NCBI GenBank assembly: GCA_965204755.1
Contig: OZ242011.1
Location: forward strand, 2,528,001-2,592,000
DNA: 64,000 nt
Origin: Candidatus Marinacidobacterium sp.
GTDB lineage: Bacteria > Acidobacteriota > Vicinamibacteria > Marinacidobacterales > Marinacidobacteraceae
Direction of reading: 5' to 3'
The translations under genes were made by a program, and so were the position numbers. How positions within the stretch are numbered: the first letter of the stretch is position 1; each line of letters begins with the position of its first letter. Positions 8,922 through 63,696 of the stretch are shown here, in pieces. The notes below the pieces were generated by a model. The model had not been told where the DNA came from and ran no database searches. It saw nothing but the letters and a program-made list of their open reading frames with translations.

Positions 8922-9284
8922 CCCTTGTACGCGGAGACTCGCAGGGCGGGCGCCTCCGCATCGAGCGGCGTCTCGGTCGCACGCCCGATCCCTCGAGTCG
9001 CGCCGACCGCTCGCCCGTCCGCTCCCGTCCCTCATCCACCGGGACGGCGCGGCCCCTTCAACGCGGCGCGCTCCCGTTCGACGGCCGGAGCCCTCCTCCC
9101 CCTCCGCCATGCGCCTCCCGCGCCCGCGGGCGTCGGCCTCGGCCGGGAGCCCGTTCGCAGACCTCGCCCGGCCGACCGACCGCCGCCACTCCCCAGGGCG
9201 GGTCGTTTTCGAGGCCGGTTGACGCGGGGTCCGGCGCGATACGCTGAGAGGCGCTGTCGAGGCGCTGAGCCACACAGGAGAGGA

Positions 9285-10712: not shown

Positions 10713-11333
10713 GCGGGAAGCGGAAGGAGGCGGCGCACACCCGCCGTCGGCGCCGGCGGGCGGGGGTTCTTCCCCGCCTTCGGCGCGGCAGACAACTCGG
10801 CGCCGGTCGGCGCGCCGGCTCGGGGACCGTCCGCTCGGCGGCCCGGCCGGGGGGCCGTGGTTTCCGGCTGCTCCCCGGGGTCGGGGAGGCGGACGGCCCG
10901 GCGGTCGGAGGGGCGGTCGGGGAAGAAGATCCGGCCCCGGCGGGGTCGGGCGCGCCCCGGCCCCGCCTCGGCCGTCCCGTCCCGGAGGGCTGCCGCGGTT
11001 GCGGGACGCCGCGACCGGCCAGGGCCGGCCTGGGCCCCGTCCCGGCCCTTCCCTCCGCCCCGGAACCCGAGAGTGTCCACTTTTCGCGTCCCATCGACGG
11101 GTGGGGAGGCGAGGCGGACCGGGGCGGCGCGGCGCCGGGGGCTGTCGGCGCGGCGCGGGGTCGGCGCGGCGGGGGCGGGGGCGCGGTACTATTCCCGGCG
11201 CGGGCCGCAGGGTCGGCGGGGGTCGGGCGCGGGTTCGGGCGGCGGCGGCGAGGGGCGGCCGATGGTGGTGGGCTCGCCCAGCCACCCCTAAAGTGATTTG
11301 TTAAGGGTCGGTTGCGGTGAGGGGGGTAATTTG

Positions 11334-55778: not shown

Positions 55779-55813
55779 CCGCATCAGGAATCTTGACAGG
55801 AGCCTTCGCCACC

Positions 55814-58477
55814 ATGTCCATCCAGTTGACCGTACGGGCCCGGCGGGCGCTCGAGCGCGCCGGCGAACTCGCCGGGGAGGGGCGGCACGCGCAGGTCGCG
55901 CCGCTCCACCTGCTCGCGGCGCTCCTCGAGGACGACGCGTCCTCCGCGCCCGCCGCCCCGGCGGGGCAACGCCCGGTCGAGGGACTCGTCCCGCGCCTCC
56001 TCCGCCGCCTGTCGGTCGAACCGGCGGCGGCGCTCGCCCGCGTCCGCCGCAAACTCGGCGAACTCCCGGTCCGCGGCGGCGGCGGCCCCGACGAACCCGC
56101 GCCATCGCGGGAACTCGGCGCCGACCTCCGCCGGGCGGCGAAGGAAGCGGCCCGGCTCGGCGACGAGTATGTGAGCGTCGAGCACCTCCTCCTCGCCCTG
56201 ACCGACCGGCGCTCCGCCGCGGCGCCGCTCCTCCGCGAGGGCGGCGTGGAGCGCGAACCCCTCGAAGCCGCCGTCCGGGAGACCCGCGGCGCCTCCCGCG
56301 TCACCACCCCCGACCCGGAGGCCGCCCTCGCCCCGCTGGAGCGCTACTGCCGCGACCTCACCGCGCTGGCCGCCGAAGACCGGCTCGACCCGGTCATCGG
56401 GCGCGACGACGAGATCCGGCGCGTCATCCAGATCCTCTCCCGCCGCGCCAAGAACAACCCGGTGCTCCTGGGCGAGCCGGGGGTCGGCAAGACCGCGGTC
56501 GCCGAAGGGCTGGCCGTCCGCATCGTGAAGGGCGATGTGCCCGAAGGGCTCCGCGAGCACCGGGTGGCGGCGCTCGACCTCGGGGCGCTGGTGGCCGGCG
56601 CGAAGTTCCGGGGTGAGTTCGAGGAGCGGCTGAAGGCGGTGCTCTCCGCCGTCACCGACTCCGGCGGCAAGATCGTCCTGTTCATAGACGAACTCCACAC
56701 CGTGGTCGGCGCCGGGGCGACCGCCGGGCCGATGGACGCCTCGAACCTGCTCAAGCCGGCGCTCGCGCGGGGCGAACTCCACTGCATCGGCGCGACCACG
56801 CTCGACGAGTACCGCCGCCACATCGAGAAGGACGCGGCGCTGGAGCGGCGGTTCCAGACCGTCCTGATCGAGGAGCCGAGCCGCGAAGCGACGGTGACCA
56901 TCCTCCGGGGGCTGAAGGAGCGCTACGAGGTGCACCACGGCGTCCGCATCCGGGACGCGGCGCTGCTGGCCGCCGCCGCGCTCTCGGACCGCTACATCTC
57001 CGGGCGGTTCCTGCCGGACAAGGCCATCGACCTGGTGGACGAGGCCGCCGCCCGGCTGCGCACCGAGATGGACAGCGTCCCCACCGAACTCGACGAGGTG
57101 GAGCGGGAGTTGCTGTCGCTCCGCATCGAGCGCGAGGCGCTCAGGAAGGACGAGGACGCCGCCTCGGTGGCGCGGCGCACGGAACTGGCGGGCCGCGTCG
57201 CCGCGCGCGAGGAGGCCGCCCGGACGCTCCGCGCCCGGTGGCGGGAGGAGAAGGAGCGGTTGGCCGCCGTCCGCGGGCTGCGCGAGCGGATCGAGGAGAC
57301 CGACCGGCAGATCGAGCGCGCCGAGCGCGAGGCGGACCTGGAGCGCGCCGCCGAACTGCGGTTCGGGACGGCGCCGGCGCTCCGGGAGGAACTGGCGGCG
57401 GCGGAGGCGCGGCTGGCGGCGAACGGGAAGTCCGACGGGGAGACGAAGTTGCTCCGCGAGGAAGTGGACGACTCCGATGTGGCCTCGGTGGTCTCCCGGT
57501 GGACCGGGATCCCGGTGGAGCGGCTGCTCGAAGCGGAGCGGACGAAGTTGCTCCGGCTGCCGGAGTTGCTCCACCGGCGGGTGGTCGGACAGGAGGAAGG
57601 CGTCCGGGCGGTCGCCGACGCGGTGCTCCGCGCCCGGGCCGGGGTCGGGGACCCGGACCGGCCGCTGGGGACCTTCCTGTTCGCCGGGCCGACCGGGGTG
57701 GGGAAGACGGAACTGGCGCGCGCCCTCGCCGCCGAACTCTTCGACGACGAGAAGGCGATGGTGCGGCTGGACATGAGCGAGTACGGCGAGAAGTTCGCGG
57801 TGTCGCGGCTGGTCGGCGCCCCGCCGGGGTATGTGGGCTTCGAGGACGGCGGGCAGTTGACGGAGGCGGTGCGGCGGCGTCCGTTCTCGGTGGTGCTGTT
57901 CGACGAGATCGAGAAGGCGCACCCGGAGGTGCACACCGTCCTGCTGCAGGTGCTCGACGACGGGCGGCTGACGGACTCGCAGGGGCGGGTGGTGGACTTC
58001 CGCAACGCGCTGCTGATCCTGACCTCGAATGTGGGGAGCGCGGAGATCCTGTCGCTCGCGGAGCGGGGGGCGGGGTACGCGGAGATCCGGCGGCGGGTGA
58101 TCGCGGAGTTGCGGCGGGCGTTCCGTCCGGAGTTCCTGAACCGGGTGGACGAGACGGTGGTGTTCGAGAGCCTGTCGCGGGAGCAGGTGGCGGAGATCGT
58201 GGGGCTGCAGTTGGAGCGGCTGCGGACTCGGTTGGCCGAGCAGGGGATCGGGATGGGCGTCTCCCCGGAGGCCCGGCGCGCGCTGGCGGCGGCGAGTTAC
58301 GAGCCGGCCTTCGGGGCGCGTCCGGTGCGGCGGACGATCCAGCGGCTGGTGGAGACGCCGGCGGCCCGGCTGATCCTCGCCGGGGAGTTGGAGGCGCCGG
58401 GGACGCTGTCGGTCGTTGTCGGGGAGGGCGGCGGGGTGGCCCTTCGGGCGCTGCCCGCCGCGGAAGTCGCCGCCTGA
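55814..58477 (+). CDS. clpB: ATP-dependent chaperone ClpB
   Basis: [39 protein letters not shown], long coiled-coil middle domain, [26 protein letters not shown]. Confidence 0.95.
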
Positions 58478-58495
58478 GCGGGCGGGCGCCGGGGC

Positions 58496-59665
58496 TCAGC
58501 GGGCGGCGAGTTCCTCGGCGAAGGCGCGGAGGCCGATGACTTCGACGCCGTCGCGCAGCGGGTAGCGGTCGTCCCCGGGATAGACGACGAAGGTCCGCTC
58601 GGGGCGGAGCGCGGCGCGGGCCTCGTGGAAGCCGCGGGAGACGGTCGGGGCGAGACCCAACTTCGCCTCGACCGCCCAGCGCCCGCCGCCGGGGAAGTCG
58701 AGCGCCAGGTCCATCTCCGCGCCGGCCGCGGTGCGGAAGAAACTCGCTTCGGTCCGCTCCGGGGCGGCGGCGATGGCGTTCTCGATGACGAAGCCCTCCC
58801 AACTCGCCCCGGCGACGGGATGCCCGGCGAGTTCGTCCCATGTCTCCGGGCCGAGGAGGGCGTGGACGAGGCCGCTGTCGCGCAAGTACACCTTCGGCGA
58901 CTTGACCAGGCGGCGGCCGATGTTCGCGGTGAGCGGCGGCAGCCGCCGGAGGAACATCAGGTCGGAGAGCAACTCCAGGCAGCGGTTCGTCGTCCGCGCC
59001 GCGATGCCGAGCGCCGCGGCCAGGCGGGAGGAGTTCAGCAGCCCGCCCTGGGAGTGGGCGAGCATCGTCCAGAGCCGGGCCACCACGCCCGGAGCGGCGC
59101 GGGGCGCGAACCAGGCGATGTCCCGGGCGACGATCGTCCGCAGGAAGTCGTTCCGGACTTTCCGGCTGCGGGCGTCGCCCTCGGCGCGGTAACTCTCCGG
59201 GAACCCGCCGCGCAGCCAGAGCCGCCGCCGCGCCGCCGGATCGTCCTCGATTTCCAGCGCGTCGAGCGGGCCGAGTTCCACTTCGGCGACCCTCCCGGCG
59301 AGGCTCTCCCCGGCGCGGGCCAGCAGGTCGAGCGACGCCGAGCCGAGCAGCAGGAACCGCCCGGCGCGCGCGCCCCGCCGCCGCCCCCGGTCGATCAGGC
59401 CGCGCAGGACCCGCAGGATCTCCGGCGTCCGGTGGATCTCGTCGAGGACGACCAGCCGGTTTTCGAGGGGCTCGAGGAAGAGGTTCGGATCGCGCAGTTT
59501 CGCCAGGTCCGCCGCGTCTTCGAGGTCGAGGTAGAGCCCGCCCTTCGCCTCGGCGACGGCGAGCGCCAGGGTGGTCTTTCCCGCTTGCCGGGGGCCGAGG
59601 AGGAATACGGCCGGCTGTCGGTCGAGGGCTTCGACGACGGTCGCGAAGGTGCGGCGGGGAATCAT
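58496..59665 (-). CDS. AAA_14 ATP-binding protein with DUF4143 domain
   Basis: LLGPRQAGKTTLA, LDEIH, FLLLGSAS, ESLAGR, LRGGFP, KSPKVYLRDSGL, EMDL; start at ATG 59665, not the track start at 61390. Confidence 0.92.
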   Translation of the reverse strand: MIPRRTFATVVEALDRQPAVFLLGPRQAGKTTLALAVAEAKGGLYLDLEDAADLAKLRDPNLFLEPLENRLVVLDEIHRTPEILRVLRGLIDRGRRRGARAGRFLLLGSASLDLLARAGESLAGRVAEVELGPLDALEIEDDPAARRRLWLRGGFPESYRAEGDARSRKVRNDFLRTIVARDIAWFAPRAAPGVVARLWTMLAHSQGGLLNSSRLAAALGIAARTTNRCLELLSDLMFLRRLPPLTANIGRRLVKSPKVYLRDSGLVHALLGPETWDELAGHPVAGASWEGFVIENAIAAAPERTEASFFRTAAGAEMDLALDFPGGGRWAVEAKLGLAPTVSRGFHEARAALRPERTFVVYPGDDRYPLRDGVEVIGLRAFAEELAAR

Positions 59666-59781
59666 CGTCCTTGTATTTTCGGTACTTGGATGTCGGATAT
59701 TCAAGGATGTCGTGTTCGCATCCGGCGCCGGCGCGGTCTCGAAGGGGCCTTCGAGCGCGAAGGGACTCGATCCGCATCCGG

Positions 59782-59835
59782 TGTCAACCGGCGCCGAAAA
59801 TGTCCCACTTTTAAGCAACGAAAACGCCCCACCTT
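59782..59835. mobile_element. Isolated IS21-family-like terminal repeat (remnant)
   Basis: TGTCAACCGGCGCCGAAAATGTCCCACTT with a second internal box CGAAAACGCCCCACCTT; no istA/istB in the window. Confidence 0.65.
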
Positions 59836-59849
59836 GGGGAGTGGATGCG

Positions 59850-61890
59850 GTCGGTGGGTGAGGGGGTCGATCCGCGGCATCGAGCCGGTGAAGGGGCTCG
59901 ATCCGGGCGTCCTGCGGGTGCGAAGGGGGTCGATCCGCGTCGTGAGTCGGAAAGGGGGTCGATCCGCCGGTCGGCGGGTGAAGGGGTCGATCCGCGATGT
60001 CGAGCCGGTGAAGGGGCTCGATCCAGGTGTTCTGCGGGTGCGAAGGGGGTCGATCCGCGTCGTGAGTCGGGTAGGGGGTCGATCCGCCGGCCGGTGGGAC
60101 AAGGGGCTCGATCCGCGATATCGAGCCGGTGAAGGGGCTCGATCCGGGCGTCCTGCGGGTGCGAAGGGGGTCGATCCGTGTCGTGAATCGGATAGGGGGT
60201 CGATCCGCCGGTCGGTGGGTGAAGGGGCTCGATCCGCGATGTCGGGCCGGTGAAGGGGCTCGATCCGAGTGTCCTGCGGGTGCGAAGGGGGTCGATCCGC
60301 GTCGTGAGTCGGGTAGGGGGTCGATCCGTCGGTTGGCGGGTGAAGGGGTCGATCCGCGATATCGAGCCGGTGAAGGGGCTCGATCCGGGCGTCCTGCGGG
60401 TGCGAAGGGGGTCGATCCGTGTCGTGAGTCGGGTAGGGGGTCGATCCGCCGGTCGGTGGGTGAAGGGGGTCGATCCGCGATATCGAGCCGGTGAAGGGGC
60501 TCGATCCGGGCGTCCTGCGGGTGCGAAGGGGCTCGATCCGCGTCGTGAATCGGATAGGGGGTCGATCCGCCGGTCGGTGGGTGAAGGGGCTCGATCCGCG
60601 ATGTCGGGCCGGTGAAGGGGCTCGATCCGGGTGTCCTGCGGGTGCGAAGGGGGTCGATCCGCGTCGTGAGTCGGGTAGGGGGTCGATCCGCCGGTCGGTG
60701 GGTGAAGGGGCTCGATCCGCGATATCGAGCCGGTGAAGGGGCTCGATCCGGGCGTTCTGCGGGTGCGAAGGGGGTCGATCCGCGCCGTGAGTCGGGTAGG
60801 GGGTCGATCCGTCGGTTGGCGGGTGAAGGGGTCGATCCGCGATATCGAGCCGGTGAAGGGGCTCGATCCGGGCGTCCTGCGGGTGCGAAGGGGGTCGATC
60901 CGCGCCGTGAGTCGGGTAGGGGTCGATCCGTCGGTTGGCGGGTGAAGGGGTCGATCCGCGCCGTGAGTCGAGTAGGGGGTCGATCCGTCGGTTGGCGGGT
61001 GAAGGGGTCGATCCGCGCCGTGAGTCGAGTAGGGGGTCGATCCGCCGGTTGGCGGGTGAAGGGGTCGATCCGCGACATCGAGCCAGCGAAGGGGCTCGAT
61101 CCGGGTGTCCTGCGGGTACGAAGGGGGTCGATCCGCGTCGTGAGTCGGGTAGGGGGTCGATCCGCCGGTCGGCGGGCGAAGGGGCTCGATCCGGGCGTCC
61201 GGCGGGTGCGAAGGGGGTCGATCCGCGCCGTGAGTCGGGTAGGGGGTCGATCCGTCGGTTGGCGGGTGAAGGGCTCGATCCGCGACATCGGGCGGGCGAA
61301 GGGGCTCGATCCGGGCGTCCGGCGGGTGCGAAGGGGGTCGATCCGCGTCGTGAGTCGGGTAGGGGGTCGATCCGCCGGTCGGTGGGACAAGGGGGTCGAT
61401 CCGCGATATCGAGCCGGTGCAGGGGCTCGATCCGCGGGTCCTGCGGGTGCGAAGGGGGTCGATCCGTGTCGTGAATCGGATAGGGAGTCGATCCGCCGGT
61501 CGGTGGGTGAAGGGGTCGATCCGAGAGATGGGGCCGGTGCAGGGGCTCGATCCGGGCGTCCTGCGGGTGCGAAGGGGGTCGATCCGCGTCGTGAGTCGGA
61601 TAGGGGGTCGATCCGCCGGTCGGTAGGTGAAGGGGGTCGATCCGCGAGATAGGGCCGGTGCAGGGGCTCGATCCGGGCGTCTTGCGGGTGCGAGGGGGCT
61701 CGATCCGCGCCGTGAGTCGGCTGGGGGTCGATCCGCCGGTGGTAGGTGAAGGGGGTCGATCCGCGAGATGGGGCCGGTGAAGGGGCTCGATCCGGCTGTC
61801 TTGCGGGTGCGAAGGGGGTCGATCCGCGCCGTGAGTCGGGTAGGGGGCTCGATCCGCCGGGTGGCGGGTGCGAAGGGGGTCGATCCGTTC
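59850..61890. repeat. Higher-order tandem array: ~16 units of 120-121 bp, each of four ~30-bp subunits sharing the core AGGGG(G/C)TCGATCCG
   Basis: About 68 cores by manual count; core-to-core spacing 31/32/29/28-29 bp; four recurring spacer types. Confidence 0.95.
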
Positions 61891-61967
61891 GAGCGGAGGC
61901 CGGAGGGAGTTCGCGATCCCTCGCGCCGGGTGGCCGGGAGGCCGGTAGCGGGCGCGACCGGGGGCGG

Positions 61968-63251
61968 CTACCGGGGAGATTCCGGCGCGGCGCGATAGGC
62001 CTGCTCGACTCCGCGGGCGCCGACCGGGTGGCGGCGTTCGAGGAGTCCTTCTTCGGCCATGGGCCGGAGGTGGCGCTTCCGCAGGTTGCGCTCGTTCATC
62101 CCCAGTTGGGAGGCGAGTTCGGCGCGGGTGGTCCAGCGCCCCTCGCAGAGTCGCACGATCACCGCGCGAAGGGCGGTCTTGCGGGGCCGTTTGCCGAGGG
62201 CGGCGACGGCGGCGCGAAGGTCGTCCGGCAGTCGGGTCGGCGGTTCGGGAGCCGGGTCGGTCGGCTCGGGGCGGTCGGGGGAGTCGCGGCGGGGGGCGGG
62301 GGCGGGGGTGGTTTCGGTTGGCTCGGGCGGCTCGGGTTCGGGCGTGGCGGCGTCGGCGTCCGGGGGGGTCGCGACGGGCGGGGCGCGGGGCGGGGGTTCC
62401 GGGCTCGGCGCGGCGGTTTCCGCTCGGTCGTCCGGCGACTCCTCCGGTCGGCGGGTTCGGGGGCGGGCGGTTCGGGGGCGGGCGGTTCGGGGGCGGTCGT
62501 AAGGCGGGGGCGCCGCGCCGGCCGGCTCGGTGGACGGGGGAGGGGACGCGGGCGGCGGTTCCGGCGGCGGCTCGGGGGTCGGTGTCCCGACCGCGCCTTC
62601 GGCGGAAGGCGGCTCGGCGCGTCGGGTCGGGGGTTTCGCGGGAGTCCGCTTCCGGGGCGGGGCGACCGCGCGGGTGTCCGGCGCCGGCGGGGCAACCTCC
62701 TTCGGCGCCGGCGCGCGGGCGGGGGGGTCGGGCGGCGGCGCCTCGATGACCGGCTTCGGTCCCTCCGGGGCTTCGCCGGTGACGGCTTCGTGGAGTTCGC
62801 CGAGGGCGACGCCCACCCCGGCGGCGTCCCGCGCGGTGTCCGCCCAGCGGGCGCCGCCCTCGCGCATCTGCTTGCCGGCGGCGGCCAGTTGCCCGCCGAC
62901 TCGGCCCAGGCGGCCGCCGGATTCGCTCCACTTCCGCCCCACCCGGTCGAAGCGGTTTCCCATCTTGCCGACGCCCTGCGCGACCTTCGCGGCGGCGTTC
63001 GCGATCCGGGCGCCCCGGTAGGCCGACCGGCCCGCCACCCGCAGCCCCCGGCCGAGGTGGATGCCGATCCAGCGCGCCCAGAGCCAGGCGAACCGCGCCG
63101 CCGCGATGGGCTTGGCGAGCCACTGCCGCAGCCGGTCGAGCCCCGGCGGCTCGTCCGGGGAACGGAGGACGACGCCGGACTCCGCCGGCTCGGGGGACTC
63201 CGCCGGTTCGCGGTCGGGGCCGGGGGAGCGGGGGACGGTTCCGGACTCCAT
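61968..63251 (-). CDS. Proline-rich protein with C-terminal winged-helix domain (Fic-like C-terminal wHTH type)
   Basis: C-terminus LRAVIVRLCEGRWTTRAELASQLGMNERNLRKRHLRPMAEEGLLERRHP...QAY; long P/E/A linker; start uncertain (63251 or 63332). Confidence 0.7.
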   Translation of the reverse strand: MESGTVPRSPGPDREPAESPEPAESGVVLRSPDEPPGLDRLRQWLAKPIAAARFAWLWARWIGIHLGRGLRVAGRSAYRGARIANAAAKVAQGVGKMGNRFDRVGRKWSESGGRLGRVGGQLAAAGKQMREGGARWADTARDAAGVGVALGELHEAVTGEAPEGPKPVIEAPPPDPPARAPAPKEVAPPAPDTRAVAPPRKRTPAKPPTRRAEPPSAEGAVGTPTPEPPPEPPPASPPPSTEPAGAAPPPYDRPRTARPRTARPRTRRPEESPDDRAETAAPSPEPPPRAPPVATPPDADAATPEPEPPEPTETTPAPAPRRDSPDRPEPTDPAPEPPTRLPDDLRAAVAALGKRPRKTALRAVIVRLCEGRWTTRAELASQLGMNERNLRKRHLRPMAEEGLLERRHPVGARGVEQAYRAAPESPR

Positions 63252-63324
63252 CGGTGCGGGGGCTCTGCCTGCCGCCGAGACTATCCGACCCCGGCGGCGC
63301 CCGCCGGGGTACGGTTTCGGCCCG

Positions 63325-63696
63325 ATGCTCACCGCCCCGTTCTCTCGGCGGCCTCGGGCTGCCGGGCCGTACTTCTTCCTCGTGCTCGAGGAAGAGCACA
63401 GTTGCCGGAGCCGGCGGGAACTCCTGCCCGCCGTGCTCCGCGCGCTGGCGGCGCGGGATCCCGGTTTCCTCGAGCGGGCGGCGGCGCGACTCGGCGGCCG
63501 CGCGCGTCCCTACCTCGCCCGGGACCGCGGGGCCGTGATGCGCGGACGCCGGTGGCGGATTCCTCCCGCCCGACTTCCGGGAGGATGGTGGGTCCGCAGC
63601 CAGTTCAACCGCGAGAGTCTGGCGAGGATCCTCCCGCGAGTGGCCGAGGCCGCCGGACTGCGCTGGGGCGAAGACCTCATCGTCGACCTGGACTGA
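63325..63696 (+). CDS. Stand-alone SeqA C-terminal-domain-like protein (putative methyl-DNA binder)
   Basis: L..L...D..F...A...L.GR.R.Y.A.D...P..LPG.WWV..QFN resembles by eye E. coli SeqA-C (L.GRTRVYFAAD...P..VPGTPYWVITNTN). Confidence 0.6.
   Translation: MLTAPFSRRPRAAGPYFFLVLEEEHSCRSRRELLPAVLRALAARDPGFLERAAARLGGRARPYLARDRGAVMRGRRWRIPPARLPGGWWVRSQFNRESLARILPRVAEAAGLRWGEDLIVDLD

Follow-up and report, generated by a model that had tools for sequence, protein, structure and literature searches.

The stretch of DNA analysed here, called the window, comprises 64,000 nucleotides of the chromosome of Candidatus Marinacidobacterium sp. (GenBank assembly GCA_965204755.1, contig OZ242011.1, positions 2,528,001 to 2,592,000), whose genome is one contig of 3,975,858 bp with 71.7% G+C. 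Near the right end of the window, between the gene for an AAA_14/DUF4143 ATPase and an open reading frame (ORF) of 454 amino acids, lies the tandem array A2, in which the heptamer TCGATCC returns at short intervals (Table 1). A2 is a real, non-coding, satellite-like array and one member of a lineage-specific family with at least six arrays in this chromosome. An earlier sequence-only reading of the window had described about 68 GATC-containing cores spaced by 28-32 bp with four spacer types in the order A-B-C-D, and number, spacing and order were all borne out.

Table 1. Position of A2, of its surroundings and of its sister arrays (two dots, window positions; hyphen, genome positions).
Feature	Position	Strand	Description
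AAA_14/DUF4143 ATPase gene	58496..59665	-	start codon 202 bp from the first tandem core; points away from the G-rich strand of A2
Degenerate outlying units	59735..59790	+	with a lone exact core at window 59767-59773; split from A2 by the L element
L element	59782..59855	+	dispersed, ~75 bp; copies at genome 585,812 (97% over 62 bp) and 1,410,107 (96% over 73 bp)
A2 tandem array	59867..61886	+	68 TCGATCC cores, 67 full units of 28-32 bp; D-A-B-C higher-order repeat of 120/121 bp
Triplicated B-C pair	60863..61064	+	A-B-C-B-C-B-C by unit typing; junctions inside the shared core
Missing D unit	61157..61217	+	C unit directly followed by an A unit (unit typing); D lost at about 61186
454-amino-acid ORF	61968..63332	-	Pro/Ala-rich, winged-helix-like C-terminus; stop codon ~80 bp from the last core; transcribed towards A2
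A1	339,974-341,756		93 exact cores; units only 15-16 bp, cores with almost no spacer
A4	755,758-755,999		5-6 cores; decayed copy of the A2 type
A6	1,840,190-1,840,521		10 cores, period 33
A7	2,161,901-2,163,150		35 cores and 9 inverted; units of 24-35 bp, periods up to 218 bp
A3	2,780,725-2,782,400	opposite to A2	48 cores; four-unit repeat of 121 bp

All 68 units carry TCGATCC without a single exception and on the + strand, with no copy on the - strand; one further copy, at 59767, lies outside the tandem run. With the genome outside the arrays as background, ~0.36 copies per strand are expected by chance in 2041 bp. The 67 distances between cores are 29 bp (23 times), 31 bp and 32 bp (16 times each), 28 bp (11 times) and 30 bp (once). 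Three helical turns between cores, as first proposed, are not what is found, as the mean spacing of 30.04 bp corresponds to 2.86 turns and the 121-bp unit to 11.5 turns. The 14-mer AGGGG(G/C)TCGATCCG is exact in 54 of the 68 cores and in 62 if its fifth base is optional. Guanine makes up 46.8% and cytosine 23.5% of the + strand, and each unit holds one GATC and one TCGA (68 and 79, respectively, in the 2041 bp).

Typing of the 67 units against four prototypes gave DABC eight times, then DABC-BC-BC, DABC, ABC, DABC five times and finally DAB with a hybrid last unit, so that the triplicated B-C pair and the dropped D, both already noticed in the sequence-only reading, were found again. There are only four spacer types, and each recurs 15-18 times in a fixed order. 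Tandem Repeats Finder, which had been suggested as a check, recovered the array (59848-61887) with periods of 120/121, 241 and 362 bp and 86-92% matches. As in a satellite, distinct monomer types stand head to tail and were amplified as a multi-monomer unit, namely DABC in A2, a homologous unit in A3 and, by Tandem Repeats Finder, periods of 32-218 bp in A7.

Counted per eight units from left to right, mismatches to the unit consensus amount to 13, 11, 6, 9, 14, 18, 16 and 19. Divergence is thus lowest in the centre, raised at both ends and highest at the right end. The decay towards the right that had been claimed is only half of the picture: the right end is indeed the most diverged (up to 19 mismatches per eight units), but the left end is also more diverged than the centre. 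A uniform centre with decayed ends is expected for an array that is homogenised by unequal exchange. Concerted evolution is also seen in the 86-92% matches within A2 as compared with 59% identity between the spacers of A2 and A3, and in the more diverged edges. Slipped-strand and unequal exchange leave exactly such traces, namely changes by whole units, junctions inside the core and a uniform centre with decayed edges.

A2 is not an artefact of one assembly, an objection that the sequence-only reading had raised against itself. Fifteen public runs from five studies cover part of the stretch, including sponge and marine metagenomes, and none of them is recorded as RNA. The contigs of four runs from four studies were compared with the locus, and those of all four enter both edges of A2: one contig covers the left flank and ends at 59811 or 59839, and another begins at 61818 or 61864. 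Pieces from inside the array were found in the four runs as well; that at 60988-61148, for example, has 0 and 1 differences in runs X1 and X3. The flanks differ at ~3-6% of positions in runs X7 and X11, and related strains therefore have the array at the same locus. Contig joints that skip 31 bp (X11) and 536 bp (X7) stem from short contigs within the repeat and were not used as evidence.

A coding repeat and a clustered regularly interspaced short palindromic repeats (CRISPR) array had been ruled out by the sequence-only reading, rightly so. The + strand has 14-24 stops per frame. All three frames of the - strand are free of stops, and this absence fits the base composition, with an own estimate of ~1.6 stop-forming triplets expected per 121-bp unit. 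Any reading frame is broken repeatedly, because higher-order units of 120 and of 121 bp alternate in A2, and simple units of 15 and of 16 bp in A1; a coding tandem repeat is ruled out, since the period is not a multiple of three and the frame is not maintained. A2 resembles a CRISPR array in that a constant short sequence alternates with spacers of similar length and in that an AT-richer, leader-like element lies at one flank. However, the constant part has only ~14 nt (as compared with roughly 23-47 bp), four spacers are repeated throughout and A1 has no spacers at all, and a CRISPR array is ruled out. Searched against the own genome, spacers A-D gave no more than partial matches at the level of chance outside the arrays (best E = 0.006), and guide-like spacers were rejected, as no targets were found there.

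At the level of RNA, no match was obtained in Rfam at E <= 1 for 59000-62600, and no tRNA gene was predicted in A2 by ARAGORN. Two higher-order units do not fold better than shuffled sequences (z = -1.36 for the + strand and -0.45 for the - strand), and their fold energy is -72.6 kcal/mol on the - strand versus -116.1 kcal/mol on the + strand. A G-quadruplex array was rejected, with no canonical motifs at loops <= 7, only 14 at loops <= 12, a mean G4Hunter score of 0.82 and many units without a G-run in A7. The idea of a CsrA-type RNA sponge was also given up, as no PF02599 match is present in the genome.

The core and its sister arrays

The sequence-only reading had made its own validity depend on a core that is more conserved than the spacers, and this is the case. 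Taking the seven core positions in each of the four unit types as 28 core columns and the other 94 as non-core columns, none of the 28 is variable within A2 as compared with 40 of the 94 (Fisher p = 4e-6). The related statement that TCGATCC is invariant while spacers and G-runs mutate stands for the core, which is intact in 68 of 68 units, but not for the rest: most of the variation sits in the 5-10 bases right after TCGATCCG, and near-constancy extends from the core to the AAGGGG run and to the 3' half of each spacer.

A search for other copies, likewise proposed beforehand, showed that the same core builds at least five more arrays in the genome. The six arrays sum to 7,323 bp, and about 260 exact cores are present genome-wide. 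The building block of each array is the invariant octamer TCGATCCG with a G/T-rich run before it. Between A2 and A3, the consensus units align type for type, in equal order and with equal lengths, and this match indicates descent from one ancestral 121-bp unit. Since then, ~40% of the spacer identity has been lost and the core has been kept, with identity at 31 of 32 core positions, 20 of 24 in the G-run and 39 of 66 in the spacer (p = 4e-5). The spacers of A6 and A7 are unrelated to those of A2, yet TCGATCCG is present, and many A7 units carry it without a G-run. A core that faces its own inverted copy recurs in A2 (type D), A3 (type D'), A7 and A6. The constraint on the core within A2 and between A2 and A3 fits the selected recognition site that had been suggested from A2 alone. 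A conserved helical phase does not hold across the family, as cores are 15-16 bp apart in A1 and 24-35 bp apart in A7.

Outside the arrays, TCGATCC occurs as often as expected from a Markov model (1396 observed versus 1385.8 expected, ratio 1.01), and the ratios are 0.98 for GATC and 0.99 for TCGATC; for TCGATCCG, 715 copies were observed and 630.7 expected. A dispersed signal word of the Chi, uptake or restriction type was rejected, as TCGATCC is neither over- nor under-represented genome-wide. Two more clusters of TCGATCC with a period of 21 are unrelated and correspond to coding heptad repeats. It was also considered that A2 and A3 are halves of one array split by an inversion. This is out, because selB and the gene for an S51 peptidase, which lie 170 bp apart in a congener, still flank A3 here with ~5.5 kb between them; the difference in spacing indicates that A3 came with an insertion.

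Genomic surroundings and distribution

The arrays are intergenic and lie among ordinary chromosomal genes, such as ClpB and the AAA_14/DUF4143 ATPase (A2), selB (A3), a tetrapyrrole-type methylase and an epimerase (A6) and NQR genes (near A7). For a Pfam scan of the neighbours, 62 ORFs were chosen from 105 within 4.5 kb of eight loci, which were the six TCGATCC arrays and two of the iteron loci described below. Neither a Par nor a Rep family was found beside any of the eight loci, and no restriction-modification gene beside any array. A shared neighbour protein was rejected, as the only cross-locus BLAST matches are spurious ORFs running through the arrays. The 454-amino-acid ORF to the right of A2 matched no Pfam, NCBIfam or PHROG family, and its Atlas scores of 0.80-0.81 are a lead only. 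ParB_N genes are located at 1.818, 2.670 and 3.796 Mb, with the main parB at 1.82 Mb and dnaA at 1.824 Mb; as dnaA is distant from the large arrays, a link to the replication origin was dropped.

All five larger arrays share an arrangement that has a chance probability of about 1 in 16: next to the start of the G-rich strand lies a gene that is encoded on the opposite strand and turns its 5' end to the array. At A3, this gene is selB, whose start is 41 bp away. Two of the three largest arrays adjoin genes related to selenium: A3 lies upstream of selB, and the ORF to the right of A1 (L015:8887-9354) matches a CYCXC (seleno)protein family below the cut-off (62.8 versus 90 bits). This proximity may be a coincidence.

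ClpB and the DUF4143 ATPase gene are adjacent here (window 55793-59665), whereas in the congener G001 a distance of 1.16 Mb separates them (1.474 versus 2.638 Mb). Part of the 454-amino-acid ORF has its best matches in G001 at 2.519 Mb and ~5 kb downstream of ClpB. As these neighbours are dispersed in G001, A2 sits in a rearranged, variable region.

A2 starts directly after the dispersed L element, and A3 ends directly before another one, R (2,780,552-2,780,725), which is 94% identical over 174 bp to another copy. R is at least 170 bp long and opens with two copies of GAAAAGTGGACA 24 bp apart. At two loci without an array (585,8xx-586,2xx and 1,410,1xx-1,410,5xx), L and R lie ~100 bp apart with the polarity seen at A2 and A3. 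On the - strand, L contains a terminator-like hairpin (59845-59827) followed by a T-rich tail, which would place it just 3' of A2 if the C-rich strand was transcribed, and the hairpin is also kept at another copy of L. No Rfam match was found for either element. An origin of A2 by amplification of the segment between L and R was rejected, as the alignment scores are within the range of shuffled sequences, which equalled or exceeded them in 456 and 261 of 500 cases. L-like and R-like pieces also occur in the window at 9107-9211 and 10949-11094, near the minimum of the cumulative GC skew of the genome.

Searches in 40 relatives, in 400 further genomes of the phylum and in species-genome, metagenome, viral, plasmid and phage collections revealed no comparable array of this core. 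The 13-mer GGGGSTCGATCCG has 156 copies here versus 0-6 in each of the 40 relatives (three in the one congener among them); leaving out G033, which is unpublished, does not alter the statement for the remaining 39. Three cores in a row were counted 217 times here, and 38 of the 400 phylum genomes have any match, most of them 1-4. High counts were obtained in that set only for G345 (213) and for G128 and G188 (16 each), and the matches listed are microsatellites of 7-8 bp. In G345, which belongs to another family of the phylum, these are dispersed microsatellites of the heptamer GATCCTC and its variants with 353 pattern matches (for example L045:1494-1759), a different and simpler phenomenon that happens to contain TCGATCC. 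The three-core pattern further gave one match each at 29 species-genome loci and at 28 metagenome loci; inspection, which covered the 29 species-genome loci, showed only repeats of 3-8 copies in unrelated high-GC taxa. There was no match to the pattern in viral contigs and none to the A2 segment in plasmid and phage records. Short-read assemblies collapse such arrays, and blanks in other collections are weak for this reason. In the congener G001, none of the four sites syntenic to A2, A3, A6 and A1 has such an array; the site syntenic to A1 has unrelated 15- and 24-bp repeats instead.

Origin and possible role of the arrays

Among known systems, the structure of A2 is closest to eukaryotic alpha satellite with its CENP-B box and a possible function closest to plasmid centromeres and iterons, and the closest bacterial chromosomal repeats are those of the MIRU, BOX and REP types. 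Alpha satellite consists of diverged 171-bp monomers that are amplified as a higher-order unit into megabase arrays, with a uniform centre, decayed edges and a constant CENP-B box. A2 shares with it the co-amplified monomer types, a short constant motif and different higher-order units at several loci, but it is found on a bacterial chromosome, its units have ~30 bp, the arrays extend over 0.3-2 kb, and a centromere role and a binder are only putative here.

Plasmid centromeres and iterons such as F sopC, R1 parC, pBtoxis tubC, the pSM19035 heptads and P1 incA have about 7-20 direct repeats, sometimes with inverted copies, beside par or rep genes, and are bound cooperatively in rows or titrate a protein. 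Direct repeats of a short, constrained core are present here as in such partition and iteron loci, in A7 mixed with inverted copies, and binding of a protein to the core is putative. In contrast to them, A2 has 68 units and no adjacent par or rep gene, and is chromosomal, away from dnaA and parB and without a plasmid or phage match.

Mycobacterial interspersed repetitive units (MIRU) and other variable number tandem repeats (VNTR), pneumococcal BOX elements, repetitive extragenic palindromes (REP) and bacterial interspersed mosaic elements (BIME) usually have 1-10 copies of a whole conserved unit and vary between strains. The arrays resemble them as short, non-coding, intergenic tandem units at several loci, oriented with the neighbouring genes. 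To our knowledge, descriptions of MIRU, BOX or REP do not include a family in which the arrays have only a core of 8-14 nt in common and combine higher-order periodicity with spacers of their own, and no bacterial array family of that kind was found in titles and the opening lines of abstracts. Nearest in spirit are the archaeal Borg elements, which are reported to have pervasive, independently arising tandem repeats that often create disordered protein regions (PMC9879509). As in Borgs, many recent and lineage-specific tandem-repeat regions lie in one replicon, but the arrays described here share one core and are non-coding.

The arrays are tentatively read as a lineage-specific satellite that grows by slippage and unequal exchange and whose core is maintained by selection as a putative protein-binding site, and a rough probability of 0.45 is given to this reading. 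Purifying selection would keep the core because a sequence-specific DNA-binding protein, with its gene elsewhere in the genome, would recognise it. On the arrays, molecules of such a protein would line up in long rows, side by side in A1 and one per ~30 bp in A2, A3 and A7, and units in which a core faces its inverted copy would be dimer-type sites of higher affinity. The role of the bound arrays may be the organisation or anchoring of the chromosome, or that of a titration reservoir. The centromere-like platform and the titration sink put forward in the sequence-only reading are both putative, and no partition gene lies beside the arrays. Selection on a recognition site appears to be the best explanation because the core survives ~40% spacer divergence, in four independent unit types and in arrays with unrelated spacers. 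A DNA-binding protein is favoured because the conserved part has two DNA palindromes, the inverted partner recurs and no signal was seen at the RNA level.

Several points weigh against a selected binding site. No candidate protein that binds the core was identified, and no gene or protein family common to the array neighbours was found with Pfam, NCBIfam, PHROG and cross-locus BLAST. The frequency of TCGATCC outside the arrays is as expected, and a binder would therefore lack a dispersed regulon. Neither spacing nor helical phase is the same in all arrays (15-16, 24-35 and 28-32 bp), which argues against one fixed protein lattice. The absence of arrays at all four congener sites means that any function is dispensable at the level of the genus. 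No contig of the four public runs spans A2, so that the number of units rests on one assembly. The invariance of the core could, moreover, come in part from amplification itself, as the core is the shared microhomology where units slip.

This last point leads to a functionless or selfish satellite, in which slippage and unequal exchange would suffice and the core would be uniform as a microhomology that is copied again and again by molecular drive. It would account for gains and losses of whole units with junctions in the core (the B-C triplication and the missing D), for the uniform centre and decayed edges of A2, for the restriction to one lineage (156 core matches versus 0-6 in each of 40 relatives, and none of the arrays at the four syntenic sites in the congener), for the missing link to a gene and the expected frequency of the motif elsewhere, and also for sporadic 3-8-copy repeats with the same 12-mer in unrelated high-GC genomes. 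Still, it is considered rather unlikely. Spacers of A2 and A3 have diverged by ~40%, yet 31 of 32 core positions are identical across four independently evolving unit types, and the core persists with entirely different spacers, even without the G-run, in A6 and A7. In addition, a match of 14 nt is short for homogenisation between unit types by recombination, given the minimal homology lengths that this requires.

A transcribed repeat RNA from the C-rich strand appears improbable. It could serve as a weakly structured leader or trailer that loads Rho or insulates the genes nearby, as a sponge for an RNA-binding protein, or form R-loops through the G-rich non-template strand. The C-rich strand is co-directional with the adjacent gene on that side at all five larger arrays, but this has the above-mentioned chance of about 1 in 16. 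The hairpin with its T-rich tail directly after A2 on the - strand, kept at a second copy of L, would suit such a transcript, as would the position of A2 after L and of A3 before R with the polarity of the two array-free loci, the 454-amino-acid ORF reading into A2 and the weak folding of the - strand RNA. However, no sigma-70-like promoter, no Rfam match, no fold signal and, genome-wide, no CsrA homologue were found, and the skew between G and C is strong only in A2 and, judged by eye, weak in A3 and A7. The invariant part, furthermore, has both halves of the TCGA and GATC palindromes, for which an RNA would offer no obvious rationale.

An array of methylation or restriction sites, with clustered GATC and TCGA or the asymmetric heptamer as an epigenetic mark or decoy, is regarded as very improbable. 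Every unit does provide one GATC and one TCGA, and a homologue of D12-class adenine methyltransferases is present in the genome (E = 1e-29). But outside the arrays none of TCGATCC, GATC and TCGATC departs from expectation, the arrays have no restriction-modification gene as a neighbour, and A2 holds 69 of the 24,976 GATC sites of the genome, far too few to titrate an enzyme; the restriction decoy or methylation sink of the sequence-only reading was not supported. The chance of an assembly artefact, a coding repeat or a degenerate CRISPR array, already largely refuted, is close to negligible, since the contigs that stop short of spanning A2 and the stop-free - strand are set against edges entered in four of four runs, the 120/121- and 15/16-bp alternations, and a ~14-nt core with recurring spacers.

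If the core is indeed a selected protein-binding site, the arrays might go as far as to be a free-standing bacterial analogue of a centromeric satellite, in which a CENP-B-box-like core would load a chromosome-organising or anchoring protein, and each lineage would have a core of its own through co-evolution of array and binder, here in an uncultured sponge-associated bacterium. By analogy this is conceivable, though a long shot. Intergenic tandem repeats of bacteria are usually short and are treated as typing markers or contingency loci, whereas here ~7 kb with a satellite-type higher-order structure are present. The arrays allow a test of whether long rows of identical sites are platforms for proteins or whether molecular drive freezes a short motif; the core is a ready probe for pull-down, and the paralogous arrays are built-in controls. 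Such arrays are visible only in long-read assemblies, as every short-read contig examined broke at the edges of A2.

Other repeats in the genome

A second repeat family is formed by the AT-rich 13-mer CTATACACAATTC, with 104 copies (<= 1 mismatch) in nine intergenic loci at 357,893, 756,030, 1,207,929, 1,659,915, 2,045,498, 2,895,447, 2,970,772, 3,119,130 and 3,494,174. Each locus has two clusters in the same orientation, with 4-9 copies and spacers of 6-17 bp, which flank 150-300 bp of non-conserved DNA. One of the clusters directly adjoins the mini-array A4. A reading of the 13-mer iterons as DnaA boxes was rejected, as no copy of that 9-mer occurs near dnaA.

A third family of iterons, TGTGTCTTTAG, has 38 of its 39 copies in five loci with 6-9 copies each (245,536, 587,970, 1,046,796, 2,291,706 and 3,356,813), and lone TCGATCC cores lie beside the clusters at 245 kb. 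Finally, long runs of tandem repeats with periods of 342-405 bp extend over ~108 kb (850,503-958,533), 25 kb (513,168-538,331) and 19 kb (3,527,219-3,546,639), and these presumably lie in giant repetitive genes.

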